Origin: a bacterium
GTDB taxonomy: Bacteria > Acidobacteriota > Blastocatellia > HR10
Reading direction: 5' to 3'
NCBI GenBank assembly: GCA_041640655.1
Contig: JBEPZV010000030.1
Span: 1 to 33,063 of the forward strand
Length of the DNA: 33,063 nt
Shown here: one piece after another, positions 1 to 19,384 of the stretch
Numbering within the stretch: the first letter of the stretch is position 1
How the letters are laid out: each line of letters opens with the position of its first letter
Translations under genes and position numbers: made by a program
Notes under the pieces: model-generated
Databases searched by the model: none
Told to the model about the DNA's origin: nothing
What the model saw: the letters and a program-made list of their open reading frames with translations, nothing else

Positions 1-176
1 GCATCCGCGAAGGCCTCGGCCAATCGCGCGCCGAGCGCCGTGGCGATCTTCGGATATTGCAGCACGAGCGCGCACTGGATATAGCGCGCGCTGTGCAAGC
101 CCGAGGAGAGCCGAAAATGGCCCTCCAGAAGAGCCCCGGCCTCCCGAAAGAGGCGTCCGATGTCGTCTGTGCTCAT
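1..176 (-). CDS. pyrE: Orotate phosphoribosyltransferase, N-terminal part (runs off the window start)
   Basis: Not in the ORF track. Manual translation from ATG at 176 gives MSTDDIGRLFREAGALLEGHFRLSSGLHSARYIQCALVLQYPKIATALGARLAEAFAD, matching the PyrE N-terminal pattern GALLEGHFxLSSGxHS. AAGGAG SD upstream; ATGA overlap with the stop of the TPR gene. Confidence 0.92.
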   Translation of the reverse strand, partial: MSTDDIGRLFREAGALLEGHFRLSSGLHSARYIQCALVLQYPKIATALGARLAEAFAD

Positions 177-3100: not shown

Positions 3101-3865
3101 GAGATTGAAATAGGCCTCCGGATGATTCGGATGCACCTGAAGCAGCGCGCGGAAGGTGGCGATCGCTTCCTCCAGGCGCCCTCGCGCCAGCAATGCTCTC
3201 CCCAGCTCGTACTGCGCTTCGGGATACACACCCCCGCGTTGTGCGATCGCCGTGCGAAAGGCCTCGATCGCTTCTTCCAGATCGCCTTTCCCCATCAGGA
3301 GCCAACCGAGCTGAAAATGGATGTCCGGACTGTGCCCCCCGGACTGCTCGATGGCCGTGCGATAGGCCGCGATCGCCTCCTCGATGCGTCCGGTGTGCGC
3401 CAGCGCGAACCCCAGGTGAAAATGGGCGCGCGGGAAGATGCCGCCGCGTTGCGCGATCGCCTGCCGAAAGGCTTCGATCGCTCGCTCGACCTCCCCTTTA
3501 CCGAGGAGCGCCAGCCCGAGATTGTGATAAGCGCCGGGATGGTTCCCACCCGTTTGTTCAATGGCACGCTCATAGGCCGCGATGGCCTCTTCGAGCTCGC
3601 CGCGCCGAGCCAGCGCCATCCCCAAATAATAGTGCGCTTCCGGATACTGCGGCTGTTGCTCAATGGCCGTTCGAAACGCGGCGATCGCTCGCTCCACATC
3701 CCCGGCGTCATAAAGGGCTCGGCCCAGTAGGAAATAGGCTTTGGGGAACCGACCTTGCTGCTGCTTGATCGCCGCGCGAAGGGCCGTGATCGCCGCCTCC
3801 AGCTCCCCCCGCTGATAATGGTGCTGCGCCTGGTCGAGATAGTGCTGAGCGAGATAACCCGTCAT
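173..3865 (-). CDS. Very large tetratricopeptide-repeat protein (about 33 TPRs, 1230 aa) with Pro/Ser/Thr-rich C-terminal tail
   Basis: Continuous 34-36 aa repeats of the form PEAxYxLGxALxxxGxxEEAIxAxRxAIxQ. Start reassigned to ATG 3865 (MTGYLAQ) behind AGGAGG, because the 4090 start overlaps the kinase gene. No signal peptide or catalytic domain seen. Confidence 0.9.
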   Translation of the reverse strand: MTGYLAQHYLDQAQHHYQRGELEAAITALRAAIKQQQGRFPKAYFLLGRALYDAGDVERAIAAFRTAIEQQPQYPEAHYYLGMALARRGELEEAIAAYERAIEQTGGNHPGAYHNLGLALLGKGEVERAIEAFRQAIAQRGGIFPRAHFHLGFALAHTGRIEEAIAAYRTAIEQSGGHSPDIHFQLGWLLMGKGDLEEAIEAFRTAIAQRGGVYPEAQYELGRALLARGRLEEAIATFRALLQVHPNHPEAYFNLGRAYLRQGDLEAAREALETAIRQRGGNFAAAHHQLGLLLAQQGAVEQAAAAYHRAIEQNPFFPRAYYDLGRLYATQGAHEEAIAALSRAVEQRQGHFPEAELELARALASAGRLEEAIAHLEHVIAQGYEVAESWYELGHLFFLRKDLDRAAAAFRQALEAAGGTFPRAQYNLGRVLHEKGELQAAADAFRQAIAEHPHFPNAHFNLARTLLELGELEAAHEAIRTAIEQRERHFPEAYYLLGRIAYSRGDLAEAIDAYQTAIHQRQEPYPEAWRDLGLALLAQGKLEEAIEAYRCAIAACPTPWPEAYLELGRALQQKGMDALPEAIEAFRQAVRARSDFPEAHYHLGRALLDAGEWEDAIQSLRLAIEGQPEFPEAYDHLGRALLHVGRVEDAIEAYRQALALRPDFVHAHHGLGVALYLNGELDEAIRALERALQLKPDLSRAHHDLGVALLDRGEIERAIVAFQAAIQTAGRPYPEGYYDLGNAYFARGDLEQAIAAYRTAIEHKPDFGQAHYRLGLALWERGEVAEARAAFHRAIEVEPHAFPLAYYSLGVMLLEQGELDAALEALHQAIAQCELFPLAYYSLGNVFLAQGRIEDAISTYRTAIEQSGGHFPEALWNLGNAYVRQGDIARAIEAYRQAMEQTGGRDPALHHNLGLVLLQAGEWEQAEASFRKALELHPNDPEAHYYLGVLALGRGQLEEALRELRQALEQKSGPFPEAHFDLGKALYEKGEYAAAAREFQTALEQQGDFPEAHYWLGRALTAQGDVDGAIAALHAVCATHPQSFPEAHYELGLLYSRRGMLDPALDQFSLAIAANRGVFPEAYYQKGRVHARRGEVARAIEAFQKAIAQRQGVFAEAYHELGRMLYIKGDLEGATAAYSKAIQQRSESAPRPAVRSPEQDVALLLGGLVDRLAQRLRPAPRVTPPTPPSPSTALALGGEEEAAPLATEEERRGATSSSPREADSLKETTG

Positions 3866-3890
3866 GATCCCCCTCCTGGCGCTCCGGGTT

Positions 3891-7629: not shown

Positions 7630-9753
7630 TCAGCCGAGATGCTCGCGGAGGACTCGCACCAGGTCCTCAACCTGAAAGGGCTTCTCGATCACAGGCCTCT
7701 GGGTCCGATCCAGAAAGGCGCGCGTTCGCGGATCCACAAGGTCCCCAGTGAGGAAGATCATGCGCTCGCGCATCTCCGGCCACTTCTCGGCGATCTCTTC
7801 GTAGACCTCTTGTCCGCTGAGACCCGGCATCTTGAGATCGCAGAGGATCAGGTCATAGGTGCGATGCCGCAGTTTCTCCAGTGCTTGAAACCCATCACTC
7901 GCGGTATCCGTGTGATGTCCTTCCGCCTCCACGAGTTTCTTGATGAGGTCCAGAAGAGCTGGCTCGTCCTCTACGAGAAGGAGGGATCGTGCCGAGGAGG
8001 AGGGTGGGGGGAGGGCTGGCGCTGGCTCCACATGGCCTGCATCGTCCTGGTCAATCGGGAGCTCCACGATGAAGGTCGCTCCCTGTCCCGGTCGGCTGTG
8101 AACGTAGAGCCGGCCTCCGTGTTCCTGAACAATGCTGTGAGAGATTGAGAGGCCCAATCCGGTCCCCTGCCCGACAGGCTTCGTCGTGAAGAAAGGCTCG
8201 AAGATGCGATGGATGATGGCTTCGGGGATTCCCGGCCCATCGTCGGCGATCGCGATGCGTATCCAGCTCTCTGAACCTTGGCGTGAGTGCGCCCGAGAGT
8301 CCGAGGGAGAAAGGCATTGCGTGCGGATGGTCAGGCGTCCTCGCCCGTGCGCTTCCAGCATCGCCTGTTCCGCATTGATGATGAGGTTGAGGAGGACCTG
8401 CTGCAGTTGGGAGCCATCGGCGGGGATCGGAGGGAGAGTGGGGTCGAACTCTTTGATGACCTCGATGTTGTTCACTCGCAGGTGATAGGCGCGAAGCGCC
8501 AGCGTGCCCTCGATCAGATCATTGATCTTCACCAGAGATCGCGCGTGCTGTTTCGGTCGGGCGAACGTGAGCAGGTTCTGCACAATCCGCCGCGCCCGCA
8601 GCGCGGCCTCAGAGATGGCATTCAGGCCACTGGCGAGAGCGGGGGGGAGGTCCGGCTCAACGCGCATCAACTCGCTGTATCCGATGATGATGGCCAGGGG
8701 ATTGTTCAATTCGTGCGCGACGCCGGAGATGAGCTGTCCGAGCGCCGCCATCTTCTCCGACTGGAGGATCTGCTCGCGAAGCGCCTTCGCCTCGCTGACG
8801 TCGCGCGCGATGACCAACAGGGAGGGCTGGCCTTCGTATTCGATCGCGCAGGCATTGATGTTGACGAAGATGTGGCGCCCATCTTTGCCGATCAGGACCA
8901 CATCCTGAGGTGTGCTCGGCTCCCCCGGCTTGCGGGAGAGGTATTGTGTTCGCACCAGCTCCCGATAATCGTCGCGCACGAGATCCAGAAAATCCCGCGC
9001 GGTGATCTCTTCCGCGGAGTATCCGAGCATCTTCAAGCCGGAGGTATTGCAGTAGCGGAAGCGTCCCTGCTGGAGGATCGCCACAGCATCCGCCGCGCTC
9101 TCGATGATCGCCCGAAGTTGTTGCTCCGAATGGTGCAGCCGCTCGGCCTGCTCTCGCGTGGCCTCCAGCAGATTCGAGACCTCACGATAGAGGGAAGCGT
9201 TCTCCAGGGCGACGCCAATGATATTCCCCACCGAATCCAGGAATTGGTGCGCGTCAGCATCCCACTCGCGGGGGCGGCGATGCGCCAGGACGACGACGCC
9301 CAGGATATTCCCCTTCGCCTTCAAGGGGATCAGCGCGTGGAAGCGAAATCCCTCCCGCCGGAGGAGGCGACCGATCACTCCTTCCGTGGGCTCGCCGATG
9401 ACGGAGGTCCTCTGACTCAGGACACGGGAGAGGACAGCATCCTGTGGCCCCACATGTTGAAGAGGGGCGAGCGTTGTCGCCTGCAGCCCCTGGTGCGCCA
9501 GCAGGCGAAAAGCATCCGAGGGAAAGTCCCTCAGCAGGATAATTCCCGCGTCCAGCTCCAGCAAGCGCAGGATGTGATCGAGAGCCAGAGGGAGCGTTCG
9601 GTTCACGTCGAGCGATTGGCTCACAGCCGTCGCGATCGCGTTCAGGGCCACCAGTTGCTTGTTTTGTTCCAAAAGGCGGCCAGCTCGCCGGAGGATCCGC
9701 TCATGGGGTTCATGAAGCAGGGCTCGGGCATCGGACGGCGAATGGGCATTCAT
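7630..9753 (-). CDS. Soluble hybrid sensor histidine kinase (GAF-PAS-HisKA-HATPase-REC)
   Basis: H-box GVAHELNNPL, N-box QVLLNLIINA, DDGPGI, FEPFFTTK, GTGLGL, and receiver LLVEDE...DLKMPG...KP. N-terminal GAF and PAS; no TM. Start 9753 (MNAHS) behind GGAGG; the alternative 9786 overlaps the S8 stop. Confidence 0.92.
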   Translation of the reverse strand: MNAHSPSDARALLHEPHERILRRAGRLLEQNKQLVALNAIATAVSQSLDVNRTLPLALDHILRLLELDAGIILLRDFPSDAFRLLAHQGLQATTLAPLQHVGPQDAVLSRVLSQRTSVIGEPTEGVIGRLLRREGFRFHALIPLKAKGNILGVVVLAHRRPREWDADAHQFLDSVGNIIGVALENASLYREVSNLLEATREQAERLHHSEQQLRAIIESAADAVAILQQGRFRYCNTSGLKMLGYSAEEITARDFLDLVRDDYRELVRTQYLSRKPGEPSTPQDVVLIGKDGRHIFVNINACAIEYEGQPSLLVIARDVSEAKALREQILQSEKMAALGQLISGVAHELNNPLAIIIGYSELMRVEPDLPPALASGLNAISEAALRARRIVQNLLTFARPKQHARSLVKINDLIEGTLALRAYHLRVNNIEVIKEFDPTLPPIPADGSQLQQVLLNLIINAEQAMLEAHGRGRLTIRTQCLSPSDSRAHSRQGSESWIRIAIADDGPGIPEAIIHRIFEPFFTTKPVGQGTGLGLSISHSIVQEHGGRLYVHSRPGQGATFIVELPIDQDDAGHVEPAPALPPPSSSARSLLLVEDEPALLDLIKKLVEAEGHHTDTASDGFQALEKLRHRTYDLILCDLKMPGLSGQEVYEEIAEKWPEMRERMIFLTGDLVDPRTRAFLDRTQRPVIEKPFQVEDLVRVLREHLG

Positions 9754-9782
9754 CCTCTCACTCCCTCCCACGACCGGCATCC

Positions 9783-10979
9783 TCATTGAGTGAGGGCTGC
9801 GAACGCATCGATGCGTCCGTATCCGAGTCCGCTACCGACATAGATGGCGCTGTTCAGGACCCGGCTGGGATCGCGCCCGAGGGAGAGCACGAGGGCCACG
9901 GTCCCGCTGACGAAAGGCGCAGAGAAGGACGTACCGCTCCACCAGGCGTACCGCCCTCCCGGATATGCGCTATAAATATTCACGCCTGGCGCGCACAGAT
10001 CCACGAAGGCTCCGTAATTCGAGAAATCGGCCTTGCGATCCTGCGGATCCGTCGCCGCTACGGCCCATACCAGCGCTTCTTCTGACGCCGGGAATGGTGG
10101 TGTGCTGCTATTGTCGTTCCCCGCCGACGCGATGAGCGTGACCCCCTGTTGCGCGGCGAACTGCAAGGCCTCTCGGATCGCCCGCGAGGGTGTGGAGAGG
10201 CCAAAACTCATGTTGATCACCTGAGCCCCTCGCATCGCGGCGAACCGGATCGCCTTCACGACGTCGGCAGCCGTGCCCACGCCATCTGACGTGAACGCCC
10301 GCATGGGCATCAGCGTTGCCTCTCGCGCGACGAGCGCGACAATACCAGCGACCATCGTCCCATGACCATAAGCCGGACCACCTCCCTGTTCCACGGGCGT
10401 GCGGTCTTGATCCACAAAGTCATAGCCTTCAGTGAGCCTTGTGAAAACCGGATGCGTGGGGTCAATTCCTGTATCAATCACCGCCACGGTGATGCCCTCA
10501 CCTCGCGTGATAGTCTGCGCTTGCTTCAGACGCAGCAGTCGCGCGGCGTATTGATCAAAATAATCTGATGGGGAATAGCCATCGACGAAGGCCTGGCTTC
10601 GCTGATCCACGAACGCCTGACTTCGCTGATCAAGCTGGAAGATCCGCAGAAGGAAATTCGGCTCTGCCCATTCCACAGCGGGATCGCTCTTCAAGAGGGC
10701 GAGCGCTTGTGGGACTCCCAGAAGCGGAGGCAAGCCCAACCGAAATGTGTTCGCCTCCAGACGGTCGAGGATCGTGAGTCCCAGGCGTTGCACTACGGTC
10801 TGGATGTCCTGTCCTGGTCGCCCTTTGCAGAGGACCTCTCCCTCGCGATACAGGGGGTTGGATTGGGCCCGCGCAGAGGGTCCGAAGGAAACGAGCGAGT
10901 GCGAGCCACTCAGGCTCCAGAACAGAGACCAGATGAGAATCCAAACGCTACGGCGCGCTCGCGTGATGTGGTATCTCAT
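9783..10979 (-). CDS. S8 (subtilisin-like) serine peptidase with signal peptide and N-terminal prodomain
   Basis: Triad motifs VIDTG (D), HGTMVAG (H), GTSFSAP (S) and oxyanion SAGND. Hydrophobic N-terminus ending ARA|Q; prodomain ending AVEWAEPNF; AGGAGG SD. Confidence 0.92.
   Translation of the reverse strand: MRYHITRARRSVWILIWSLFWSLSGSHSLVSFGPSARAQSNPLYREGEVLCKGRPGQDIQTVVQRLGLTILDRLEANTFRLGLPPLLGVPQALALLKSDPAVEWAEPNFLLRIFQLDQRSQAFVDQRSQAFVDGYSPSDYFDQYAARLLRLKQAQTITRGEGITVAVIDTGIDPTHPVFTRLTEGYDFVDQDRTPVEQGGGPAYGHGTMVAGIVALVAREATLMPMRAFTSDGVGTAADVVKAIRFAAMRGAQVINMSFGLSTPSRAIREALQFAAQQGVTLIASAGNDNSSTPPFPASEEALVWAVAATDPQDRKADFSNYGAFVDLCAPGVNIYSAYPGGRYAWWSGTSFSAPFVSGTVALVLSLGRDPSRVLNSAIYVGSGLGYGRIDAFAALTQ
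10581..10631 (-). repeat. Tandem 24-bp coding repeat encoding DQRSQAFV-DQRSQAFV-D at the S8 prodomain/catalytic junction
   Basis: Unit 1 GATCAGCGAAGTCAGGCGTTCGTG (10608-10631) and unit 2 GATCAGCGAAGCCAGGCCTTCGTC (10584-10607) are 21/24 identical, and all 3 differences are synonymous third positions. Confidence 0.95.
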
Positions 10980-11021
10980 CGCTCATCCTCCTATCGGATT
11001 CATGCCCGGCCCCCATCGGGC

Positions 11022-13898
11022 TTAGAAGGGCGCTCCGATCAAGACGAACGGCGCCCAATAATAGGGATGCTCGTATCTCGCCCTCACGGCCAGATGCGCG
11101 TTCCGCAGGGCCGCGCGCTTGCTGAGTCCCTGCTGCCACCCTGCGTAGAAGTATCGCATGAAAGTCGCCGTCGAGCGGTCGCTGACTGTCCACAGGCTGG
11201 CCAGGAGAGAAGGAACTCCTGCATAGAGGAAGCCGCGCATGAGTCCGAACAGCTCATCGCCGGGGAAGATGGCGTTCATCCCGGTCTCGCACGCGCTCAA
11301 GACCACCAGTTCGGCTCGCAGCGTGAGGTTGAAGATATCGTAAAAGTTCAGCCACGCGTCCTTCAAGCGCAAGGCCGAGAAGAGCGGATTGTCCGGTCGA
11401 AAGAGGCCATGGGAGGCCAAATGCAGGACGCGGCCCGATGGCGCCGCGCGTCGGAAATTCTCCAACGTGGCGGCTTCTCCGGTGAGGAGAAGGGCATCCG
11501 TCCAGATCGAGGCGAGCTCGGCGACCTCTTCCCGAACGAAGGGGGTCGCCTCGTCCCACACGCCGACGATCACGGCCGGTCCTTCGCGCGGCCGCATCTG
11601 AGCTTTTTGCACGCAGAGCCGATAGATGCTGGCGCTCGGACAATAAGAGACCTCTCGTTGGTCCGCGAGATACTCCCGCCCATTCTGGAGCGCATGGAAG
11701 GGGACATAATGAAGGAAGCCCGAAGGCGCGATGATCACCCGCTCCCCTTCGAGGGCCGATTCGAGGGGCGCGATCAGCGCCTGATACAATTCACGGAGGT
11801 AGTGATTGACGAGCACGGACATGTCCGTGAGATGGGCTTGCGCGTAGCGCTCGCCGAGAGCGAACTTCCGAAGAGCGAATCGCAATTGGCGCAGCAGGGG
11901 AGCAACGCGGTCGGCCTCGGCGATCTCCGGAAAGACGGAGATCTCATCCCGGGTGAGGATGAAGGCTCCGATCTTGCCTCGGGCGAGAAAGTATTCCAGG
12001 AAGACGTCCTCCTGGAGGACCTCTTGCACCTGCGGTGCGGAGACAGGAGAGGTCACGCGCAGATCCGCGTATTCGGCATCATGCATTTGCAACTGGTGAC
12101 TCAGCCGCCTCAGCTGCCGCTCTCGCCGACGGATCTCTCGCCGCAGCTCCTCCTCGGCGGGCGCTCGGCGGCGCGTCGGGTGGAGCTGCTGTTCCTGAAG
12201 CCGATTGAAGAGCCAGTTCAATTCCTCGCGCACGCGATTCCACTCTCGGTGGAGCCTCTCGATGTGCGGCTCTCGTCGCTTACTCTCGATGCGCTGTTCG
12301 GCCGCCAGCAGCTCGGCCAGGGCTCGCGCCTTCGCTGCCTCGACCACAGCGAAGGCTTCCGCGACCTTCTCCGGCGTCCCGGCGCGCAGGCAAAGCGCCG
12401 TCAGATCTTCATACACTCTGAGCTTGTCGCTCACGAACGTGCACCGATACTCATCCACGCGAATGTGGCTGCGCAAATCCTCCAGGTGGGCAATCGCGCG
12501 CCGATACGCGCGATATGCCCGCTCTTCGTCTCCCTTCTGCTCGAGGACCGCTCCGAGAAGGTGCCATCCTTTCTGTTTCAGCTCTAACGCGTCTCGCTCA
12601 CGGATACGGTTCAGAGCGAAGCGACAGAAGCGTTCAGCGTCCTGCACGTCTCCTTTCACGAGTTGAATCCTGGCCATCTGCAGTTCGGCGGAGGCGACCT
12701 TCGTCACAAGCCCCTGTTCCTGAAAGAGCGCTCGGGCTTCCACGCTGAGCTGCCAAGCCGCTTCCCACTGGTTTTGAGCAATGAGCACTTCGCTCAGATA
12801 GAGGTTCGAGAGGGCGCACCAGACGAGATTGCCCTCGGCGCGGAATCCTCGGCGCGCCTCTTCTAGAAAATGCGCGGCAGCCGAGAGATCGCGGCGGTGG
12901 GCGGATGCGAGGCCCAGATACATCTGGGCCTTCGCGTGCTCATAGTTCATCTTCAACTGTGCGAACACCTCGGCTGCCGAGCGAGCGGACTCCCCCGCAT
13001 CCTCGTAGGCGTTCAGATGGAGATAGATCTCGGCCATGTCCAGATCACACAGCGCCGCCAGCACCGTGTCGCCCGATCCTCGGGCGCGGACTTTGACCTC
13101 GGCGAATTGTGTGAGGCTCTCGTGGAATCGCCCGCGCTGGAAAGCGAGCCAGGCGAGGCTATAGTCCACCTCATTCACCATGTTGGAGAAGCTCAACTTC
13201 TCGTAAATTCGCCGAGCCTCCTGGTAAGAAGCGAGCGCGCGCTCGAATTCGCCGAGCGAGGTGTACTGGTTGGCGCTATTGAAATGCGTGAGGGCGAGCC
13301 CCAGTTCGTCGCCCTGCTGAAGGAAGATCTCGCGCGCGTATTCGTAAAACCGGAGCGCCTCCCGATAGCGATCGAGGCGGTGGTAGATGTTCCCCACGTT
13401 CGTTTCCAATTGAGCCAGCAGGAGCGACTCCCCGTGTCGGCGGAAGACCTCGCGGGCCCATGCCGCGACCGCCAGCGCGCGCTCGTAGTCGCCCATGTAC
13501 ATCAGAACGTCCACTTTCGCCCGAGCGATCCGCGCGGCTTCGACCTCTCGTCCCAATTGCCGATAGATCGCTTCCGCGCGCTCGTAACAGTCGAGCGCTT
13601 CCTGATATCGCCCGGAGAAATGGCGGGCAAGTGCGCATGCGTGAAAGGCGAGCGCCGACGCTGTGGGATCTTCGCACGCGGCCGCCAAGATGCGCGTGGC
13701 TTCCGCGGCGCGCGTGGCCGCCGAGATCTCCATGCGGATCAGGCGAGCGACCTCCTCCTTGAGTTGTCGGATGAGCGAGAGGGGGACTGATCGCTCAGGC
13801 GGGAGGAGATCCTCGATCTCTTCCCCCGCGCGCAGACGCGCGAGCACGTCTTCGATCCAAGCCTTCTTGTCCTCCGTCACAGGCTCCAGCGTCCGCAT
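11022..13898 (-). CDS. TPR-CHAT (caspase HetF-associated, clan CD) protease
   Basis: N-terminal TPR-like helical repeats of about 40 aa, a coiled-coil segment, and a C-terminal CHAT domain with IIAPSGFLHYVPFHAL, HLASHG (His), LSACETG (Cys), ASLWTVSD, HPYYWAPFVLIG. Confidence 0.93.
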   Translation of the reverse strand: MRTLEPVTEDKKAWIEDVLARLRAGEEIEDLLPPERSVPLSLIRQLKEEVARLIRMEISAATRAAEATRILAAACEDPTASALAFHACALARHFSGRYQEALDCYERAEAIYRQLGREVEAARIARAKVDVLMYMGDYERALAVAAWAREVFRRHGESLLLAQLETNVGNIYHRLDRYREALRFYEYAREIFLQQGDELGLALTHFNSANQYTSLGEFERALASYQEARRIYEKLSFSNMVNEVDYSLAWLAFQRGRFHESLTQFAEVKVRARGSGDTVLAALCDLDMAEIYLHLNAYEDAGESARSAAEVFAQLKMNYEHAKAQMYLGLASAHRRDLSAAAHFLEEARRGFRAEGNLVWCALSNLYLSEVLIAQNQWEAAWQLSVEARALFQEQGLVTKVASAELQMARIQLVKGDVQDAERFCRFALNRIRERDALELKQKGWHLLGAVLEQKGDEERAYRAYRRAIAHLEDLRSHIRVDEYRCTFVSDKLRVYEDLTALCLRAGTPEKVAEAFAVVEAAKARALAELLAAEQRIESKRREPHIERLHREWNRVREELNWLFNRLQEQQLHPTRRRAPAEEELRREIRRRERQLRRLSHQLQMHDAEYADLRVTSPVSAPQVQEVLQEDVFLEYFLARGKIGAFILTRDEISVFPEIAEADRVAPLLRQLRFALRKFALGERYAQAHLTDMSVLVNHYLRELYQALIAPLESALEGERVIIAPSGFLHYVPFHALQNGREYLADQREVSYCPSASIYRLCVQKAQMRPREGPAVIVGVWDEATPFVREEVAELASIWTDALLLTGEAATLENFRRAAPSGRVLHLASHGLFRPDNPLFSALRLKDAWLNFYDIFNLTLRAELVVLSACETGMNAIFPGDELFGLMRGFLYAGVPSLLASLWTVSDRSTATFMRYFYAGWQQGLSKRAALRNAHLAVRARYEHPYYWAPFVLIGAPF

Positions 13899-13913
13899 AG
13901 GTCACCCTCGCAA

Positions 13914-14552
13914 CTACGGCAAGCCTTCCTCTGTTTGAAGCAGCGCTTGAAGCCCGGTGATGCGAATCTCGTCCCCTTCGCGCTGCAGTCGCATGTCGTA
14001 GATGCCTTCGGGGATCCCCTCGAGGACGAATTCTCCCATCGGATTGATCTTCGCCGTGCTCACCAGCTGATCCCCCCGCCACAATTCGACGATCGCCTCA
14101 CCGAAAGGGGGGATGCCCTCTCCACACGGGAGCACTTGCCCCAACAGGTCCACTCCGAGGGTGGTCTCCGAGCGCTCGATCAGCAGATCGATCTCGTAGG
14201 CACCGGCTCGATATAACATCTGCCGCGAGGATGGACCTATGTGGCGAAGTCCGAGCAGACGGCTTTCGGCGAAATTATCTATAACGAGGAAGGCCAGGAT
14301 GCGCGAGAGCCGGCTGGGTGAGGGATCCATCAGCCGCTGGCGAAACAGGACGACGGCATGACGAAAAAGCCATTCTGGAGGGTCCAGAAGGCGCGGATTC
14401 GTGATCACCTCCAGAAGGTCGCGTAATCGGCTCATCTCCCGGTGGCAACGGACGCATCCGGCCTCAACATGTCTCTGAACTGCTCCTCTCTTGTCCTCGG
14501 GCAGCTCGCCTTGCAGGAGATCGAGAAGCTCATCAAGGGTCGGACACGCCAT
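13914..14552 (-). CDS. Putative soluble anti-sigma factor: zinc-finger (ZAS-like) N-terminus plus carboxypeptidase-regulatory-like beta-sandwich C-terminus
   Basis: Start reassigned to ATG 14552 (MACPTLDELL) with AGGAG SD. Contains C...HVEAGCVRC and a C-terminal LLGQV...GEFVLEGIPEGIYDMRL pattern. No TM. Lies directly downstream of an ECF sigma. Confidence 0.75.
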   Translation of the reverse strand: MACPTLDELLDLLQGELPEDKRGAVQRHVEAGCVRCHREMSRLRDLLEVITNPRLLDPPEWLFRHAVVLFRQRLMDPSPSRLSRILAFLVIDNFAESRLLGLRHIGPSSRQMLYRAGAYEIDLLIERSETTLGVDLLGQVLPCGEGIPPFGEAIVELWRGDQLVSTAKINPMGEFVLEGIPEGIYDMRLQREGDEIRITGLQALLQTEEGLP

Positions 14553-14583
14553 GTTCTCCTCCCCGTCATGTTCTCCTTCCCTC
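14550..14583 (-). repeat. 17-bp period direct repeat duplicating SD plus ATG (AGGAGAACATG x2)
   Basis: Minus strand GAGGGAAGGAGAACATG-ACGGGGAGGAGAACATG, 14/17 identical. The first ATG (14569) is out of frame with the gene. Confidence 0.8.
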
Positions 14584-14623
14584 TTTATATGTGCCGCCTT
14601 GCGGCGAAAAGATGCACCTCCGC

Positions 14624-15217
14624 CTAAAATCCCAGCCGCTTCAGGGCGTTCACGAACCGCCTCAAGCACCGCGCGCGCATGGGACCGATACTGGAGGCGG
14701 CGAGCCCGAGCTCTTGAGCGATCTCGGCATACGGCTCCTTCTCGTAAAAGAGAAGGATCAGCAGGCGACGACAGGGTTCTCCGATCTCCTCCAACGCTTG
14801 TCGAACGAGCTGTTCGCGCTCCAGCCGCTCGATCTCTTCGAGCGGCAGAGGGGCGGCGTCCGGTTGCTGCAGGAGTTCCTGTCGCGCCTGCTCCAAACTG
14901 ATCCACTCGGGACGTTGCCGTCGTTGCACGCGAGCGCACTGTCGGATCGTGATGGTCGCCACCCATGAGCGGAATCTCGTTTCATCCTTGAGCTTGTGGA
15001 GGTTCTCCAAGATCACCACACAGACGGATTGGAACACATCGGCGACGTCCTCGGGGGGCAACCCCGCTCTCCACGCGAGGGAGTAGATCAAGCGTCCGTA
15101 TCGCTCCAGGAGCGCGATCCACGCCTGTTCCTCTCCCTGCAGGCACAGGGCGATGAGGTCTCTATCGGTGAGACGCCGGTATGCATCCGGTGCATGTTCC
15201 ATAGCGTCGTGCTCCAT
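14624..15217 (-). CDS. ECF (group IV sigma-70) RNA polymerase sigma factor
   Basis: Region 2 (AWIALLERYGRLIY...DVADVFQSV...FRSWVATI) and region 4 HTH (PYAEIAQELGLAASSIGPMRARCL); about 197 aa. Start could be 15202. Confidence 0.92.
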   Translation of the reverse strand: MEHDAMEHAPDAYRRLTDRDLIALCLQGEEQAWIALLERYGRLIYSLAWRAGLPPEDVADVFQSVCVVILENLHKLKDETRFRSWVATITIRQCARVQRRQRPEWISLEQARQELLQQPDAAPLPLEEIERLEREQLVRQALEEIGEPCRRLLILLFYEKEPYAEIAQELGLAASSIGPMRARCLRRFVNALKRLGF

Positions 15218-15249: not shown

Positions 15250-15277
15250 AGTATAGCATCCTGCGAGGGCAGCGCAA
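15250..15277 (-). promoter_or_regulatory. Putative sigma70 promoter (extended -10) for the sigma-CHAT-S8 operon
   Basis: Minus strand TTGCGC-N16-TATACT with TG-n directly before the -10, about 30 bp upstream of the sigma start. Confidence 0.5.
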
Positions 15278-15489: not shown

Positions 15490-17211
15490 TCATCGGCGCG
15501 CGGCAAGAGGGTGGATGCGCAACTCCTCGACGTTCCAAAGGAGGAAATCGGGGATGAGGCCAGGTTTGAGGTTCTCCACATGGGCCTTCGCCGCGACGAT
15601 CAGATCGCGAGCCACCAAGTAAATGAACGGCACGTGCTCTGCCATAATCTCCTGCACCCGATCGAAGAGCGCCTTTCGCCGTGCGGGATCGAATGTGCGC
15701 ATCTGTGCGTCCATCAGGTCGTCGATCTGTCGCTCCCATGCGGTGGCCGGAGCCTTCTGCCGGGGATACCACCAGTGGCTCGTCCCCCAACTGGGAAGGA
15801 CATTGTTGAGAGCCGAGGGATCTGTGTCCCCGAGCGCGAGCCCCAGCAGTCCGGCTTCATAGTCGAAGCTTTGTTCGAGGCGGGCGAACAAAGATTTCGC
15901 TTCCAGAGGTACGAGCTGGACGTGAAGGCCCACCTTCCTGAGATCCTCTTGGATCATCAACCCGAGGCGTTCGCGAATCGGATTTCCCGCAGTCGTCACA
16001 ATAGTGAAGGAGACTGGGCGTCCCTGTCGGTCTTCCAGTCGCCCATCACCGTCGCGGTCGGTCAGCCCCATCTCAGCCAGGAGAGTGCGGGCGCGAGTGG
16101 GATCATACGGATAGGTTCGCACCCTCGGGTTGTACCAGGGGCTTGAGGGGGGGACCGGTCCCCACACCGGAGTCGCCTTTCCTGAGAAAAGGACCTCGAC
16201 CAGGGCCTGACGATCAATGGCGAAGGCGATCGCTTGGCGGAATCGCACGTCTTGAAACCACGCCCGCTTCCACGGGGGGATGCGCGGCGCTTGCGGGTTC
16301 AGGTTGAACCACAGGACTTCGGAGATGAGGCTCGGACCGAGATCATGCACACGAACAGCGCGCGCCTCCATCTGAGGCTGCAATCGCGCGGCTTCCTCCG
16401 GCGTGATCGGAGCCAGAAGATCCAGCTCCCCTTGCTGGAACTTCAGGAATCGGGTGTTCCGATCGGGCACGATCAGGAAGAGGAGTTCATCCAAGTAAGG
16501 GAGCCGTCGCTTCTGCGCATCGCGCTTCCAGTAGTAGGGATTGCGCACGAGGACGGTCCGTTGTCCGGGCACATACTCTTTCAACATGAAGGGGCCAGCA
16601 CCGACGATTTCCGATGCCGGTGTGGAGAGTCCCCACACTGAACGGAAGCGCCCCTCTCGGTACGGCCGCTCCAGGCGATGTCGGGGCAGGATGAAGACCG
16701 CGTCAAACACGCGCTCTATCGGGGCATAGGCATAAGGGAGTGTGAATGTGAGCGTGAGCTCATCCTCGCGATGGATCGCGATCTTCCGCCCTCCAATTTT
16801 CAATAGGTCGGCCAGAGCGTTCGGCACGTTCGGGTCATAAATGACCTCGAACGTGAAGAGGACGTCGTCGGCTGTGAGTGGATGCCCATCGGAGAAGGCG
16901 AGTCCGTGCCGGAGTCGGAGGATCAGTTGCGTTCGATCCTTTGAGTAGCTGAGCGATTCGGCCAGTTCGAGTTCCGGCTGGCCTGTCTGCCGGTTGATCC
17001 GAATCAGCGGAGCCATCAGGCAACTGAGAATGCTCAAGCTCTCTTGATCGTCCGCGAAGAGCGGATTGAACGTCTTCGGCCCTGCGGCCTGGGCGACTAC
17101 CAAACGCCCCCCCGATCCCCCCGAGGATGGTGGAGAAGGAGCGCGATGGCAGGAAGCCGTCACGCTCACAAGCAGCAGGATCCCCAGTCGAGTGATCCTC
17201 GCGCTGTTCAT
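15490..17211 (-). CDS. Peptide/nickel ABC transporter substrate-binding lipoprotein (family 5, OppA/DppA-like)
   Basis: Lipobox-like VTASC; PKTFNP; FSDGHPLTADDVLFT; GAGPFML; RNPYYW; FRQAIAFAIDR. Confidence 0.92.
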   Translation of the reverse strand: MNSARITRLGILLLVSVTASCHRAPSPPSSGGSGGRLVVAQAAGPKTFNPLFADDQESLSILSCLMAPLIRINRQTGQPELELAESLSYSKDRTQLILRLRHGLAFSDGHPLTADDVLFTFEVIYDPNVPNALADLLKIGGRKIAIHREDELTLTFTLPYAYAPIERVFDAVFILPRHRLERPYREGRFRSVWGLSTPASEIVGAGPFMLKEYVPGQRTVLVRNPYYWKRDAQKRRLPYLDELLFLIVPDRNTRFLKFQQGELDLLAPITPEEAARLQPQMEARAVRVHDLGPSLISEVLWFNLNPQAPRIPPWKRAWFQDVRFRQAIAFAIDRQALVEVLFSGKATPVWGPVPPSSPWYNPRVRTYPYDPTRARTLLAEMGLTDRDGDGRLEDRQGRPVSFTIVTTAGNPIRERLGLMIQEDLRKVGLHVQLVPLEAKSLFARLEQSFDYEAGLLGLALGDTDPSALNNVLPSWGTSHWWYPRQKAPATAWERQIDDLMDAQMRTFDPARRKALFDRVQEIMAEHVPFIYLVARDLIVAAKAHVENLKPGLIPDFLLWNVEELRIHPLAARR

Positions 17212-17241
17212 CTTTGTCTCGTGCTAGCTTTGCACAGTAGC

Positions 17242-17269
17242 ATTATACGGCGAGATCGCGCGCTTTCAA
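17242..17269 (-). promoter_or_regulatory. Putative sigma70 promoter for the ABC binding-protein gene
   Basis: Minus strand TTGAAA-N16-TATAAT in the divergent intergenic gap. Confidence 0.55.
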
Positions 17270-17283
17270 GGAGGCGAACGATC

Positions 17284-18252
17284 ATGTGGATTCTTATGTT
17301 GCGGCGCAGCATCCAGGCGATCGGGTTGTTGAGCGCTCTCTCTTTCGTGACTTTTCTGGCGCTGGCCCTCACCCCGGGGGATCCGCTCGCCCAAATGGAA
17401 GGGCGTCTCTCCCTCTCTCCGGAAGTGCGCGAGGCGTGGCGCCGGCAGTGGGGGTGGGATCAGCCTGTCCTGGTTCGATACGGACGATGGCTCGCTCAGG
17501 TCGCGAGGGGGCACCTCGGGTATTCGATCGCGTACCAGATGCCGGTCTCGGAGGTGATCGGTGCGCGTCTGGGGGTGACGCTCTTGCTCACCATCGCGGC
17601 GAGCGTGATCGCGTGGGGAGTCGGCCTTCCGCTGGGGATCGTCGCCGCTCTTCGAGCCCACACCTGGGTTGATCGACTCCACGCGGTGCTCATGGCGGCG
17701 GCGTTCACGACGCCCCGATTCTTCCTGGCCTTAGTCGCGCTCCTCTTTGCGATGGTGACAGGATGGTTCCCCTTAGGGGGCCTTCACTCCCCGGGGATCG
17801 AAACGGCGCCCGCTGTCCCGCGGATCCTGGACGTGATCCATCATCTGGTGCTCCCGGCGCTGGTGCTCAGCGTGCACCCTCTGGCTGTGATCTCCACCCA
17901 CCTTCGGGGCGCGCTCGTGGAGGTTCTGCAGGCGGATTTCGTCCGCACCGCTCGCGCCAAGGGACTTCCGCCGTGGGTCCTCCTGTGGCGGCACGCGCTG
18001 CGTCCGGCGCTCGCTCCCATGATCGTGCTCCTCGGTTACTCCATTGGGAGCCTCTTGAGCGGCTCCGCGGTCGTCGAAACGGTCCTGGCCTGGCCCGGAC
18101 TCGGACAGCTCGCCGTCGAGGCGGCATTGGCCCGAGATCCGGATGTCCTCATGGCCGCTGTTCTCGCGAGTGGAGCCGCGTTGATATTCGGAAATGTCAT
18201 CGCCGATGTGCTCCTCATGCTGAACGATCCGCGCGCTCGCAGTGAGGTATGA
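17284..18252 (+). CDS. Peptide ABC transporter permease (OppB/DppB-like)
   Basis: PGDP, GWDQP..RY..WL, GHLGYS, HLVLPA, DFVRTARAKGL (EAA loop), VETVLAWPGLG. AAGGAGG SD before ATG 17284. Confidence 0.92.
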   Translation: MWILMLRRSIQAIGLLSALSFVTFLALALTPGDPLAQMEGRLSLSPEVREAWRRQWGWDQPVLVRYGRWLAQVARGHLGYSIAYQMPVSEVIGARLGVTLLLTIAASVIAWGVGLPLGIVAALRAHTWVDRLHAVLMAAAFTTPRFFLALVALLFAMVTGWFPLGGLHSPGIETAPAVPRILDVIHHLVLPALVLSVHPLAVISTHLRGALVEVLQADFVRTARAKGLPPWVLLWRHALRPALAPMIVLLGYSIGSLLSGSAVVETVLAWPGLGQLAVEAALARDPDVLMAAVLASGAALIFGNVIADVLLMLNDPRARSEV

Positions 18253-18256
18253 GCTG

Positions 18257-19384
18257 ATGGCTTCTGCATCAGGCTTCCGTCGGATATGGGCCCATCCGCG
18301 GGCACGCCGACTGTTGGTGGCTGCTCTGGGCGTTTCTCTGCTGGCGCTTTTGGCCGGATTTATCGCTCCGTATGATCCCCGGACTCAGGATCGAGAAGCC
18401 GTGAAGATGCCACCACATCGGTTGCGCTTTCGTGATGCCGAGGGGCGTCTCCATCTGCGCCCCTTCTTTCATCCCTGGCGCATTGTGGATCGGGCGCGCT
18501 GGCGATACGAAGAAGACCGATCGCGCCGCTATGAGCTGGTGTTCTTCGTTCGCGGGGAGCAAGCCCCGCTTTTCCTCGGCGTGAGGACCTCGTGGCATCT
18601 CTTCGGGGTCCGCTCTGCTCCTTCGGCGCGCCGGGCAGGTCTCTTCGATCGAGGGGATCGGGAACGCCCTCCGCGCTTTTATCTGCTGGGCACGGATCCG
18701 CTGGGGCGCGACGTTTTCTCCCGCCTCGTTCACGGCGCGCGCCCCGCGCTCTTGATCGCTTCGTTGAGCCTGGCCGGAGCCTTCCTCGTCGGATTCGTGC
18801 TTGGGGGGCTGGCCGGATACTACGGTGGGATTGGAGACGCCGCGCTGATGCGCATCGCTGAGCTGGTGGAATCCGTCCCCATTCTCTTCCTGCTCTTGGC
18901 CTGGCGCGCGGCCCTCCCACTGCAACTCTCGGTCGAGATGAGTCTCTTCACGTTGGTGGCCCTCTTTGTGCTCGTGAGTTGGGCGGCAGTCGCCCGTATC
19001 ACTCGCGGATGCGTGCTCTCGTTGAAGACGCAGGACTTTGTCCTGAGCGCGCTCGCTCTGGGAGCTGGTCCGGGGTGGATCTTGCGACGTCATCTCCTAC
19101 CGAATGCGCTCACGCCCGCGCTCATTCAAGCGACGGTCATGCTCCCCAGCTTCCTCTTAGGAGAAACCGCGCTCTCCTTCCTCGGACTCGGCGTTCCAGA
19201 ACCCGAGCCGAGTTGGGGGAATATGTTGACAGCCGCGCGGGATCTCTCTGTGCTCTACGCGCATCCATGGCTCCTCGCTCCGGGATTCGCCATTTGGGGA
19301 CTCGTTCTGCTCTTCACACAGCTTGGCGAGGCCGTCCGCGCTGCATCCGATCCCCGCTCTCCACACTCGGCGCCGCTCATGTGA
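18257..19384 (+). CDS. Peptide ABC transporter permease (OppC/DppC-like)
   Basis: APYDP, LLGTDPLGRDVFSRL, DFVLSALALGA, RHLLPN, ETALSFLGLG, PSWGNML. Start ATG 18257 (alternative GTG 18242). Confidence 0.92.
   Translation: MASASGFRRIWAHPRARRLLVAALGVSLLALLAGFIAPYDPRTQDREAVKMPPHRLRFRDAEGRLHLRPFFHPWRIVDRARWRYEEDRSRRYELVFFVRGEQAPLFLGVRTSWHLFGVRSAPSARRAGLFDRGDRERPPRFYLLGTDPLGRDVFSRLVHGARPALLIASLSLAGAFLVGFVLGGLAGYYGGIGDAALMRIAELVESVPILFLLLAWRAALPLQLSVEMSLFTLVALFVLVSWAAVARITRGCVLSLKTQDFVLSALALGAGPGWILRRHLLPNALTPALIQATVMLPSFLLGETALSFLGLGVPEPEPSWGNMLTAARDLSVLYAHPWLLAPGFAIWGLVLLFTQLGEAVRAASDPRSPHSAPLM

Follow-up and report, generated by a model that had tools for sequence, protein, structure and literature searches.

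A conserved bacterial cassette with an ECF sigma factor, a TPR-CHAT protease, and a secreted subtilase may be a protease-gated transcriptional switch

A 33,063-nt stretch of DNA from a member of the Blastocatellia (Acidobacteriota), which we refer to as the window, encodes a conserved unit of four genes: an ECF sigma factor, an anti-sigma factor, a TPR-CHAT protease, and a secreted S8 subtilase. We propose that this cassette controls the subtilase through a cytoplasmic ECF sigma switch that is gated by the protease. The caspase-like protease probably frees the sigma factor from the anti-sigma factor, and short peptides that are repeated within S8 may be the signal. We give the whole proposal, including the octapeptide as the signal, a probability of roughly 50%.

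In the proposed mechanism, a soluble zinc-type anti-sigma factor would hold the sigma factor via its N-terminal helical domain, and its beta-sandwich would dock on the helical insert of the CHAT domain, beside His830 and Cys870. The long TPR superhelix would read the signal and activate the protease, which would then cut the anti-sigma factor; the best candidate site is the loop with the invariant Gly101-x-Arg103. Once freed, the sigma factor would drive higher transcription of the operon, which includes the gene for the exported S8. As the signal, the best candidate is S8's own octapeptide DQRSQAFV, which would be set free extracellularly and then re-imported by an Opp-like importer that is linked to the cassette. 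In the window's order of bacteria, a hybrid histidine kinase would be a local addition on the input or output side.

Table 1. Positions of the cassette genes and associated features within the window
Feature	Positions	Strand	Basis or remark
Cytoplasmic hybrid histidine kinase, GAF-PAS-HisKA-HATPase_c-Response_reg	7630..9786	-	Pfam; overlaps S8 stop by 4 bp
Secreted S8 subtilase, 398 aa	9783..10979	-	Pfam Fervidolysin N-pro + Peptidase_S8
Two tandem copies of octapeptide DQRSQAFV (S8 residues 117-132)	10584..10631	-	Between pro-domain and catalytic domain
Cytoplasmic TPR-CHAT protease, 958 aa	11022..13898	-	Pfam, AF2 model, Foldseek
Soluble anti-sigma factor, 212 aa	13914..14552	-	Alignment, AF2 model, PDB profile matches to RsiW and DdvA
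ECF sigma factor, 197 aa, sigma2 + sigma4	14624..15217	-	Pfam Sigma70_r2 + r4_2
Weak sigma-70-like promoter candidate, TTGCGC-16 nt-TATACT	15250..15277	-	About 33 nt upstream of sigma start; read from sequence
SBP_bac_5 solute-binding lipoprotein (SBP; peptide/nickel type)	15490..17211	-	Pfam SBP_bac_5, E = 5e-85; directly upstream of sigma
Two ABC permease genes (BPD_transp_1), starts provisional	17044..19384	+	Pfam; divergent from SBP gene

An earlier note on this DNA described a module of five co-oriented, closely spaced genes, and the open reading frames agree with it: sigma, anti-sigma, TPR-CHAT, S8, and the hybrid kinase are all on the minus strand, with gaps of 71, 15, and 42 bp in order from sigma, and S8 and the kinase overlap. 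The genes surrounding the module in the window are housekeeping genes. We retrieved 587 relatives of the CHAT protein and kept the best 80 for counting gene neighbors, so that loci were found through the CHAT protein alone. Among these 80 loci, 76 contain the anti-sigma factor, 66 contain sigma, 66 contain S8, and 59 contain all four genes; of the 21 loci without the full set, 11 terminate roughly 1 kb or less from the module. Such recurrence (59 of 80 loci, with CHAT as the only search seed) puts the arrangement far beyond chance. The neighborhood is conserved across genomes, as the earlier note had suggested checking, and S8, which it took to be an extension of the module, is a core member. 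In contrast, the kinase, which it counted as a fifth member, is in none of the 80 loci and is absent from the second full cassette of the source genome (on contig C27). Kinases of the same family stand behind the module in just 5 of the 20 loci that come from the order to which the window belongs (L011, L014, L016, L019, and L024), and the kinase is a lineage-specific add-on that is found only in that order.

The relatives show two gene orders, sigma-anti-CHAT-S8 and sigma-CHAT-anti-S8, and the hosts of the CHAT relatives belong to the Acidobacteriota and the Chloroflexota. There are up to 7 copies of the anti-sigma factor per genome.

The S8 protease has a signal-like N-terminus, an N-pro domain (residues 37–108), and a catalytic domain from residue 160 with the triad D169/H206/S351. 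Signal-like N-termini are present in 76 of 84 cassette subtilases, and the triad is kept in 81/84; the three exceptions are fragments. The octapeptide repeat within S8 had escaped the earlier reader. TRF describes it as having a period of 24, 2.1 copies, and 88% matches, and the two 24-nt copies differ at three bases, all of them synonymous. The S8 of the C27 cassette has two copies of a DQKTVIFI-type repeat, and no such repeat was found in the five non-cassette S8 proteins of the source genome. More broadly, tandem peptide repeats are present in 51 of 83 cassette S8 reading frames. As read by eye, these include 39 octapeptides of the type [DNE][QP]xxxxx-hydrophobic and 7 Trp-containing hexapeptides; lineage-specific repeats of these two types are thus present in 46/83, and the other 37 have no such repeat, including those of Blastocatellia loci L031–L037. 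None of 63 adjacent pairs of repeat copies are identical in DNA, and of the 382 codons whose residue is shared by both copies, 205 have synonymous differences. The repeats are under selection. In Terriglobia-type S8 proteins, the repeats lie between the catalytic Asp and His, so releasing the peptide would nick the enzyme.

The SBP upstream of sigma has a lipobox-like N-terminus, and its best NCBIfam match is the oligopeptide SBP Opp4A (180 bits, which is below the cut-off of 650). It scores 400–816 bits against cassette-adjacent SBPs from other lineages and only 103 and 68 bits against the two other SBP_bac_5 proteins from its own genome. Judging from these scores, it belongs to a family of orthologs that travels with the cassette. 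The SBP adjoins the cassette in only 38 of 100 loci (L011–L110), and among loci with the order sigma-anti-CHAT-S8, it is adjacent only in L015 and in the window itself. In Terriglobia-type loci, permeases also precede the SBP. This module-linked SBP lies outside the region that the earlier note described and was missed there.

These features would also fit a regulator of protein foraging that uses no peptide signal, which we consider unlikely but worth weighing. An internal cue such as starvation would turn on the secreted protease and the peptide importer, and the repeats would be processing spacers or structural elements. The secretion of S8, the adjacent peptide-type SBP and permeases, and the housekeeping genes all around are as expected for such a regulator. 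However, it does not explain why the repeat copies encode the same residues despite synonymous divergence of their DNA, why paralogous cassettes of one genome contain different peptides, or why one genome contains up to 7 separate cassettes.

If the peptide is indeed the signal, then the signaling logic would match that of the RRNPP systems of Firmicutes (Rap/Phr, PlcR/PapR, and NprR), in which an exported precursor is trimmed by extracellular proteases, brought into the cell by an Opp-type system whose SBP belongs to family 5, and sensed by a cytoplasmic TPR receptor. This is an analogy, and we do not claim homology. The output of RRNPP systems is a helix-turn-helix domain or a phosphatase, while the proposed output here is a protease that acts on an anti-sigma factor. 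Also, the peptide here is part of the protease, which contains several copies of it, and the hosts are diderm Acidobacteriota and Chloroflexota.

Residues 1–75 of the anti-sigma factor form a helical anti-sigma domain with Cys3, His28, Cys33, and Cys36; across 89 sequences of the family, C/H3, H28, C33, and C36 are conserved. Residues 83–203 form a C-terminal beta-sandwich that is related to carboxypeptidase-regulatory-like domains. The AF2 model (pLDDT 87) has a three-helix bundle, a fourth helix, and the beta-sandwich. When a profile of the family was compared to the PDB, the best solved match to the N-terminal 75 residues was the anti-sigma domain of RsiW (RsiW/SigW from Bacillus subtilis, PDB 5wuq; E = 1.6e-6), and this match includes the pattern of zinc ligands. 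The N-terminus of DdvA matched as well (E = 1.6e-4). These similarities support the view, also taken by the earlier note, that the protein is a soluble zinc-type anti-sigma factor. Unlike RsiW, which resides in the membrane and is degraded by regulated intramembrane proteolysis, the anti-sigma factor here is a soluble protein that ends in a beta-sandwich. We found no 19-residue hydrophobic segment in the sigma factor, the anti-sigma factor, the CHAT protein, or the kinase. Domain homology and one natural sigma::anti-sigma fusion (P0043, a single cluster representative that could be a gene-calling artefact) suggest that the anti-sigma factor binds the sigma factor.

The CHAT protein matches the Pfam CHAT family (E = 7.6e-66) and contains TPRs. 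It comprises a TPR superhelix (58–476), long helices (486–605), and the CHAT domain (620–958) with its helical insert (662–708). The AF2 model (pLDDT 83) is similar to separase, Csx29, and DdvA according to Foldseek. H830 and C870 are invariant in 14/14 aligned relatives, so with the S8 triad, the catalytic residues of both proteases are intact, as the earlier note had read them. Modeling of the CHAT/anti-sigma complex, with CHAT residues 1–175 left out, supported the binding that the note had proposed to check: the ipSAE was 0.62 (0.61–0.63 across three runs), compared to 0.00 for the best control. Of 157 solved complexes, 116 reach our ipSAE mark, as do 2 of 215 mismatched pairs; this calibration is approximate here because we used small self-made alignments. 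The runs share at least 33% of contacts, and the pLDDT of the partner is at least 72. The modeled interface joins CHAT 670–699 and 835–836 to anti-sigma 91–174, and 6 of the 13 conserved beta-sandwich positions are among its 18 interface residues (hypergeometric p = 0.004). Arg103 falls outside the confidently placed interface residues. A sequence search of the PDB found no similar complex among solved structures. The model supports a placement of the conserved beta-sandwich on the CHAT domain, beside the active site.

It seems doubtful, and somewhat more so than foraging, that CHAT acts without cutting the anti-sigma factor. The beta-sandwich protein could be a securin-like inhibitor or an adaptor, with sigma or the pre-export S8 precursor as the substrate, or CHAT could be a non-cleaving partner switch that pulls the anti-sigma factor off sigma. 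The predicted contact would be compatible with this, as it involves the surface of a folded domain beside the active site and no inserted loop, and the available part of a preprint reports that a bacterial caspase-like protease cleaves a putative sigma factor. On the other hand, the invariant dyad speaks against CHAT being no more than a scaffold, CHAT stays in the cytoplasm while S8 is exported, and the anti-sigma factor is the most constant neighbor of CHAT among the best 80 of 587 relatives. We prefer cleavage of the anti-sigma factor by CHAT.

The sigma factor has family-conserved Cys25 and Cys149 and the motif SIG..R.RCL at residues 176–185. The earlier note had pointed out this motif (as SIGPxRARCL), and S-I-G..R.R-C-L is at least 90% conserved across 82 sigma factors. 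Presumably it is characteristic of ECF54, as the earlier note has it. The gene context of ECF54 is reportedly described in Huang et al. 2015 and Casas-Pastor et al. 2021. A review, in its available text, confirms what the note said of ECF54 sigma factors beside CHAT and subtilase genes: the sigma factor has conserved neighbors of the carboxypeptidase(-regulatory-like), subtilase, and CHAT types, and proteolysis was proposed (PMC8999054). This gene context is therefore already catalogued, without an anti-sigma factor or a mechanism as far as that text goes. ECF54 is described there as actinobacterial and devoid of anti-sigma factors, while the hosts here are Acidobacteriota and Chloroflexota; the "carboxypeptidase-like" protein here has a recognizable anti-sigma domain; and that text does not mention peptide repeats or an importer (PMC8999054).

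Among characterized systems, DdvA/DdvS from Myxococcus xanthus is similar in that an ECF sigma factor is bound by a three-helix zinc anti-sigma domain of the CHCC type, and this domain is joined to a TPR-CHAT of the separase/craspase type; CHAT-mediated proteolysis was proposed to free sigma (PMC11506125; PDB 8rot, 8rw5, and 8rlz). According to the available part of that paper, DdvA is one transmembrane protein that needs RseP, its TPR-CHAT is periplasmic and dimeric and lacks the three-helix motif, and its regulon is CBASS/CRISPR (PMC11506125). Here, the anti-sigma factor and CHAT are separate and cytoplasmic, CHAT keeps the helical insert, the beta-sandwich mediates the modeled contact, and both proteins are accompanied by a subtilase and a peptide importer. 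In type III-E Craspase (Csx29, a TPR-CHAT protein; Csx30; Csx31; and CASP-sigma), the protease cleaves an inhibitor that binds sigma, and this cleavage is connected with an ECF-type sigma factor, as far as the available text indicates (PMC10028731; PDB 8eex and 8eey). Csx29 chains are among the top fold matches of our CHAT protein. However, it scores just 66 bits against the Csx29 family model (cut-off 300), there is no Cas7-11 or CRISPR nearby, target RNA cannot be the activator, and the PDB profile search revealed no relationship between the anti-sigma factor and Csx30. With no cas gene in the window and no system-level match from PADLOC, the module is independent of CRISPR, as the earlier note had proposed. 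In CalpL/CalpT/CalpS (type III CRISPR), a signal-activated Lon-SAVED protease cuts an anti-sigma factor and frees an ECF sigma factor. The logic would be the same as we propose for the cassette, but CalpL has a Lon fold instead of CHAT, a cyclic oligoadenylate ligand, and a link to CRISPR.

Given the parallels to Csx29/Csx30/CASP-sigma and DdvA/DdvS, and a match of S8 to PADLOC's "subtilase" model (E = 7e-26), the cassette could be an infection-triggered anti-phage or abortive-infection module analogous to the Craspase or CalpL arms, but this is very improbable: PADLOC did not match the sigma or anti-sigma factor, there are no cas, mobile, or defence genes near the cassette in the window, and synteny is stable across whole classes, including the nutrient-type transporter.

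We found no ECF-type promoter motif upstream of the cassettes, so autoregulation is assumed rather than seen. One enriched bipartite motif was rejected as a promoter because it turned out to be the last part of the coding sequence of the SBP gene upstream. The single sigma70-like promoter of the earlier note stands in part: the candidate upstream of sigma is present, but it matches just 8 of 12 consensus positions, and a consensus promoter scan reported no sites on the minus strand that resemble a promoter. A looser pattern, TTGNNN-N16-18-TANNNT, precedes sigma in 5 of 15 relatives (the mean for shuffled sequences was 1.1, and 3/500 shuffles reached 5), and from these sequences, housekeeping-type promoters seem to lie ahead of several of the sigma genes.

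The five co-oriented minus-strand genes described in the earlier note lie where it had placed them, and Pfam recovered every domain that it had named (see the table for coordinates). From the sigma gene to the S8 gene, neighboring genes are separated by 71, 15, and 42 bp; the S8 and kinase genes overlap by 4 bp. Both proteases have intact catalytic residues, as was claimed (H830 and C870 in the TPR-CHAT protein; D169, H206, and S351 in the S8 subtilase). The N-terminus of the S8 protein is signal-like, and we found no hydrophobic segment in the sigma factor, the 212-aa protein, the CHAT protein, or the kinase of the window.

Genes of the cassette, the adjoining solute-binding protein, and the second cassette in the same genome (on contig C27)
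Feature	Contig	Position	Strand	Basis or remark
ECF sigma factor	window	14624-15217	-	ORF + Pfam
212-aa protein (anti-sigma)	window	13914-14552	-	ORF
TPR-CHAT protein, 958 aa	window	11022-13898	-	ORF + Pfam
S8 subtilase, 398 aa	window	9783-10979	-	ORF + Pfam
Hybrid histidine kinase, 718 aa	window	7630-9786	-	ORF + Pfam
Family-5 solute-binding lipoprotein (SBP)	window	15490-17211	-	adjoins sigma gene upstream
Sigma factor	C27	1184-1933	+	second cassette
Anti-sigma	C27	1896-2636	+	second cassette
CHAT protein	C27	2419-5514	+	second cassette
S8 subtilase	C27	5518-7323	+	second cassette; repeated octapeptide unlike the window's

Ordinary genes surround the module; they encode Der GTPase, enoyl-CoA hydratase, a Ser/Thr kinase, and TPR proteins, and one belongs to the asparaginase family. 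Just past the asparaginase-family gene, which is convergent, 173-6413 of the minus strand encodes two proteins: one of 1305 aa that consists of TPRs throughout, and a Ser/Thr kinase of 840 aa that has TPRs at its C-terminus. No cas domains were found among the 20 flanking ORFs scanned in the window, and PADLOC gave no system-level match. The sigma70-like promoter proposed for the module can be located (TTGCGC-16-TATACT at 15277-15250), but it is weak: it matches 8 of 12 consensus positions and is absent from the list given by a consensus scan. A looser pattern of this type is found upstream of sigma in 5/15 relatives, versus 1.1 in shuffles. The regions upstream of 81 sigma genes yielded no ECF-type promoter motif. 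Their sole enriched bipartite motif, TGGGAA-N17-GATGC, was rejected, as it is the conserved end of the SBP coding sequence in Terriglobia-type loci.

Of 41 related genomes, 21 encode relatives of the 212-aa protein, none of them more than 7 copies. We fetched 20 loci around these matches: sigma, the 212-aa protein, and CHAT are in the same order in 14, a same-strand S8 gene follows CHAT in 9, and a window-type kinase comes next in 5. We also searched contigs from one genome per species with the CHAT alignment as the sole seed. This gave 587 relatives, and we then looked for the window's five proteins, by profile, in the best 80 of these loci. The 212-aa protein was found in 76, the sigma factor in 66, S8 in 66, and all four core genes together in 59. 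Of the 21 incomplete loci, 11 reach no farther than about 1 kb beyond the module. The window-type kinase was found in none of the 80. Because of these counts, we consider the core of the cassette to be four genes, including S8; the kinase is an add-on that is confined to the window's own gene order. The earlier view of S8 as an extension of the switch is therefore wrong, and the kinase should not be counted in the conserved unit.

The cassette occurs in two gene orders. The commonest is sigma-CHAT-anti-S8 (32 plain cases), and the window's order, sigma-anti-CHAT-S8, accounts for 23 cases. By their record titles, the hosts of the best 80 loci are nearly all Acidobacteriota or Chloroflexota, and the Acidobacteriota include Blastocatellia, Terriglobia, Pyrinomonadaceae, Bryobacterales, and Vicinamibacterales. 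There was no convincing actinobacterial host among the best 80 CHAT relatives (one MAG bears the label Bifidobacterium).

The window's sigma factor has 197 residues and matches Sigma70_r2 (E = 7.5e-10) and Sigma70_r4_2 in Pfam, both above the cut-off. It scores 93 bits against TIGR02937 (sigma70-ECF; cut-off 42.9), and NCBIfam assigns it to the generic superfamily only. With just the sigma2 and sigma4 regions in about 200 residues, it is an ECF (group 4) sigma factor. Each of three cysteines (C25, C149, and C184; C184 belongs to the recognition helix of sigma4) is kept by at least 90% of 82 family members. Such conservation is uncommon among ECF sigmas, and the three might form a redox or metal site.

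The earlier note had stated that ECF54-like sigma factors sit next to CHAT and subtilase genes, and this was right. Passages of a review (PMC8999054) catalog CHAT, subtilase, and carboxypeptidase(-regulatory-like) proteins as conserved neighbors of ECF54. As far as the text we drew on goes, the 2021 classification describes ECF54 as actinobacterial and without a clear regulator (Casas-Pastor 2021); the word "CHAT" is absent from its main text. Our cassette resembles ECF54 in its CHAT and S8 neighbors, which Pfam confirmed, and in a neighbor whose C-terminal half would be carboxypeptidase-regulatory-like; all four core genes co-occur in 59/80 of the best CHAT-seeded loci. Unlike published ECF54, it has an anti-sigma domain, and its hosts are nearly all Acidobacteriota and Chloroflexota. 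In the passages that we covered, from the review and the main text of the 2021 classification, we found no anti-sigma identity, CHAT docking, importer, or peptide repeats. The cassette would give this cataloged but unexplained context a concrete and testable wiring, in which the "carboxypeptidase-like" neighbor is the missing anti-sigma factor and the docking partner of CHAT.

Several observations identify the 212-aa protein. The family alignment keeps Cys/His3, His28, Cys33, and Cys36; over 89 sequences, H28, C33, and C36 are 94-96% conserved, and either Cys or His occupies position 3. The window's protein has the spacing H-x4-C-x2-C, and some relatives have H-x3-C-x2-C. In an AlphaFold2 (AF2) model (pLDDT 87), three helices (6-13, 19-30, and 34-50) are followed by a fourth (60-74) and then by a beta-sandwich (83-203). 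Pfam's zf-HC2 does not match the protein at E = 0.01. The family profile matches the anti-sigma domain of RsiW (E = 1.6e-6, residues 1-75) and the N-terminal anti-sigma domain of DdvA (E = 1.6e-4). The conserved ligands, the predicted helical bundle, and these two matches agree with the earlier claim of a zinc anti-sigma factor: judged by its sequence, the 212-aa protein is an anti-sigma factor with a zinc-binding (ZAS-type, class I) domain. That it binds and inhibits the sigma factor is supported indirectly, by gene adjacency and by one fused form, a 432-aa protein (P0043) that joins a sigma factor (46% identical) to an anti-sigma relative (34% identical).

A word-based homolog search with the anti-sigma factor returned 3 proteins; an exhaustive profile search returned 5050 at E ≤ 1e-10 and 355 at E ≤ 1e-30, many of them full-length at about 200 aa. 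The C-terminal half also matches repeats of giant proteins, which we take to be carboxypeptidase-regulatory-like repeats. Such a resemblance would explain why surveys label this neighbor a "carboxypeptidase." The beta-sandwich of pyrogallol transhydroxylase matches the profile as well. When we compared the anti-sigma model to the PDB with Foldseek, we found generic Ig-like beta-sandwiches only, none at E ≤ 0.001.

The CHAT protein matches the Pfam CHAT family (E = 7.6e-66) as well as TPRs, and H830 and C870 are invariant in the relatives aligned. Its AF2 model (pLDDT 83) has a TPR superhelix (58-476), long helices (486-605), and a CHAT domain (620-958) with a helical insert (662-708). The top Foldseek matches of this model are separase (1e-15), Csx29 (9e-15), and DdvA (4e-13). 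The architecture is that of separases and craspases, an N-terminal TPR superhelix and a C-terminal His-Cys CHAT domain.

The earlier note had suggested a predicted CHAT/anti-sigma complex. We modeled CHAT 176-958 with the whole anti-sigma factor, along with three controls, using our own alignments. The complex reached an ipSAE of 0.62 (0.61-0.63 across runs), compared to 0.00 for the best control; the runs share at least 33% of contacts, and the partner's pLDDT is at least 72. The ipSAE mark is reached by 116/157 solved complexes and by 2/215 mismatched pairs, counts that are rough here, with our own alignments in use. In the confident interface, CHAT residues 670-699 (in the helical insert) and 835-836 (by His830) contact residues 91-174 of the beta-sandwich. 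The 18 interface residues include six of the 13 conserved positions of the beta-sandwich (p = 0.004). The model supports binding of the anti-sigma factor by CHAT via the beta-sandwich, and it bears on binding, not on cleavage.

As for where cleavage might occur, Arg103 is the sole invariant charged residue in the 89 anti-sigma factors, and the Gly101-x-Arg103 loop to which it belongs is modeled with lower confidence. According to passages of the DdvA paper, separases cleave after arginine (PMC11506125). Given this specificity and the invariance of Arg103, the loop is a candidate CHAT cleavage site. It is outside the confidently placed CHAT contacts.

We conclude that the cassette is probably a variant of the protease-gated sigma/anti-sigma switch, in an already cataloged gene context. 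Among known systems of this kind, CalpL/CalpT/CalpS and the type III-E Craspase arm have been characterized experimentally. We reject a periplasmic "split DdvA" topology for the cassette family, as the membrane segments and export signals were not found: 87/89 anti-sigma factors lack a hydrophobic segment, and a few relatives' CHAT proteins have short stretches near the N-terminus, with none in the window's. In DdvA itself, one membrane-spanning polypeptide carries both a zinc anti-sigma domain, on the cytoplasmic side, and a TPR-CHAT domain, in the periplasm, while the cassette has two separate genes. Nor does the cassette's CHAT belong to Csx29, the protease of type III-E Craspase: it scores 66 bits against NF041237 (cut-off 300), and no association with Cas7-11 was seen among the 20 flanking ORFs scanned. 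Of the switch that the earlier note envisaged, independence from CRISPR stands, given that score and the lack of nearby cas domains, and binding of the anti-sigma factor by CHAT is supported by the model. Anti-sigma cleavage, sigma release, and operon induction are what we infer to lie downstream of this binding.

In this protease-gated switch, the zinc-type anti-sigma factor would sequester the sigma factor, and its beta-sandwich would tether it to the CHAT domain. The TPR array would read a signal and thereby activate CHAT, which would cut the anti-sigma factor and free the sigma factor. Free sigma would then induce the operon, whose products include the secreted S8 protease. In our literature search for TPR-CHAT proteins with sigma and anti-sigma factors, the matches all concerned CRISPR or DdvA. 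To our knowledge, protease-gated release of an ECF sigma factor has been shown experimentally in CRISPR-linked systems and DdvA only. With at least 587 CHAT relatives in one genome collection, the cassette would show it to be a common, chromosomal, CRISPR-free device in Acidobacteriota and Chloroflexota.

The genes linked to the cassette hint at the signal. Two divergent permease genes lie beside the SBP gene (Pfam), and the nearest named relative of the SBP is an oligopeptide-binding protein, at a score under that model's cut-off. In Terriglobia-type loci, SBP_bac_5 or its permeases are found upstream (as the largest upstream ORF; 74 cassettes scanned). Relatives of the window's SBP are present in 39 of 100 loci (L011-L110); in 38, the relative is encoded upstream, on the same strand as the module. 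In bits, the window's SBP reaches 400-816 against cassette-adjacent SBPs and just 103 and 68 against the other two family-5 proteins of its own genome. Because of this difference, we regard the SBP as an orthologue that accompanies the cassette in different classes and in both gene orders. Besides the window, L015 is the only sigma-anti-CHAT-S8 locus with an adjacent SBP. Relative to the module as first described, SBP should be added, S8 counted in, and the kinase left out. In three paralogous cassettes with the window's order (L021, L023, and L025), the largest upstream ORF is TadE/G-like (Flp pilus assembly), in place of the SBP. At two other loci (L069, 1848-6510, and L092, 2-4180), a cassette-type SBP gene directly abuts the CHAT gene, with no sigma gene between them; these look like a trimmed version of the cassette.

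The S8 protein of the window contains a tandem peptide repeat (EPNFLLRIFQL-DQRSQAFV-DQRSQAFV-DGYSP) between its pro-domain (37-108) and its catalytic domain. The two 24-nt copies differ at 3 bases, all synonymous. The C27 S8 has AQKTVIFI-DQKTVIFI at the corresponding place. Neither peptide string occurs elsewhere in this genome, and its five non-cassette S8 proteins have no such repeats. Overall, 51/83 cassette S8 ORFs have a tandem peptide repeat. By our own reading of the list, 39 of the 51 are octapeptides, [D/N/E]-[Q/P]-x-x-x-x followed by hydrophobic residues; 7 are Trp-containing hexapeptides, from Pyrinomonadaceae and Chloroflexota; and 5 are low-complexity only. No such repeat is present in 37/83. 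Among 63 adjacent copy pairs (chosen at 75% residue identity or above), none are identical in DNA, and 205/382 same-residue codons differ synonymously, which argues that the copies are old and have been held identical as protein; the unit varies between cassettes. In Terriglobia-type S8 proteins, an insertion separates the catalytic Asp from the His, and the repeats lie in it, away from the pro-domain junction. The Asp-His spacing in the S8 genes of this type among L039-L101 (e.g., L066, 9674-11086) is 75-105 residues instead of 37, and the S8 of L099 has one and the same unit both ahead of the catalytic Asp and within the Asp-His insertion.

This parts list (a secreted subtilase with embedded identical peptides whose last residues are hydrophobic, a linked Opp-like SBP, and a cytoplasmic TPR protein) suggests that the signal could be a peptide. 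It parallels RRNPP signaling in Firmicutes, where an imported mature peptide binds a cytoplasmic TPR receptor; the counterparts in the cassette would be the S8 protein with repeats, the family-5 SBP, and the cytoplasmic TPR protein. There, the output is a DNA-binding receptor; here, it would be a protease and a sigma factor.

We consider the peptide-signaling reading plausible, and we give a probability of roughly 0.3 to its full form, in which diderm bacteria of soil and hot springs would use the cassette as a self-contained, quorum-sensing-like circuit for peptide autoinduction. The subtilase, once secreted, would be both pheromone precursor and processing enzyme, and would free identical cassette-specific octapeptides (here DQRSQAFV). 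The dedicated Opp-like binding protein would return the peptide to the cell, where it would bind the TPR superhelix of the caspase-like protease, and the peptide-bound protease would respond by cutting the anti-sigma factor. Among the matches listed in a literature search on subtilase tandem repeats, signaling peptides, oligopeptide permeases, and TPRs, the cassette was absent. We know of no peptide-based cell-cell signaling in these phyla. If the peptide reading is true, they would have it, with peptide, receptor, importer, and output all legible from sequence.

On the same reading, genomes with multiple cassettes would operate several private peptide channels. The genome of the window has a second complete cassette (contig C27, 1184-7323, plus strand), with no window-type kinase adjoining it. 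In two related genomes, the anti-sigma paralog genes at L015 (G007:C40) and L019 (G008:C32) each have one in-frame stop, TAA and TGA, respectively. The stops sit within matches that are otherwise full-length, and these genes may be pseudogenes or may reflect sequencing errors or recoding.
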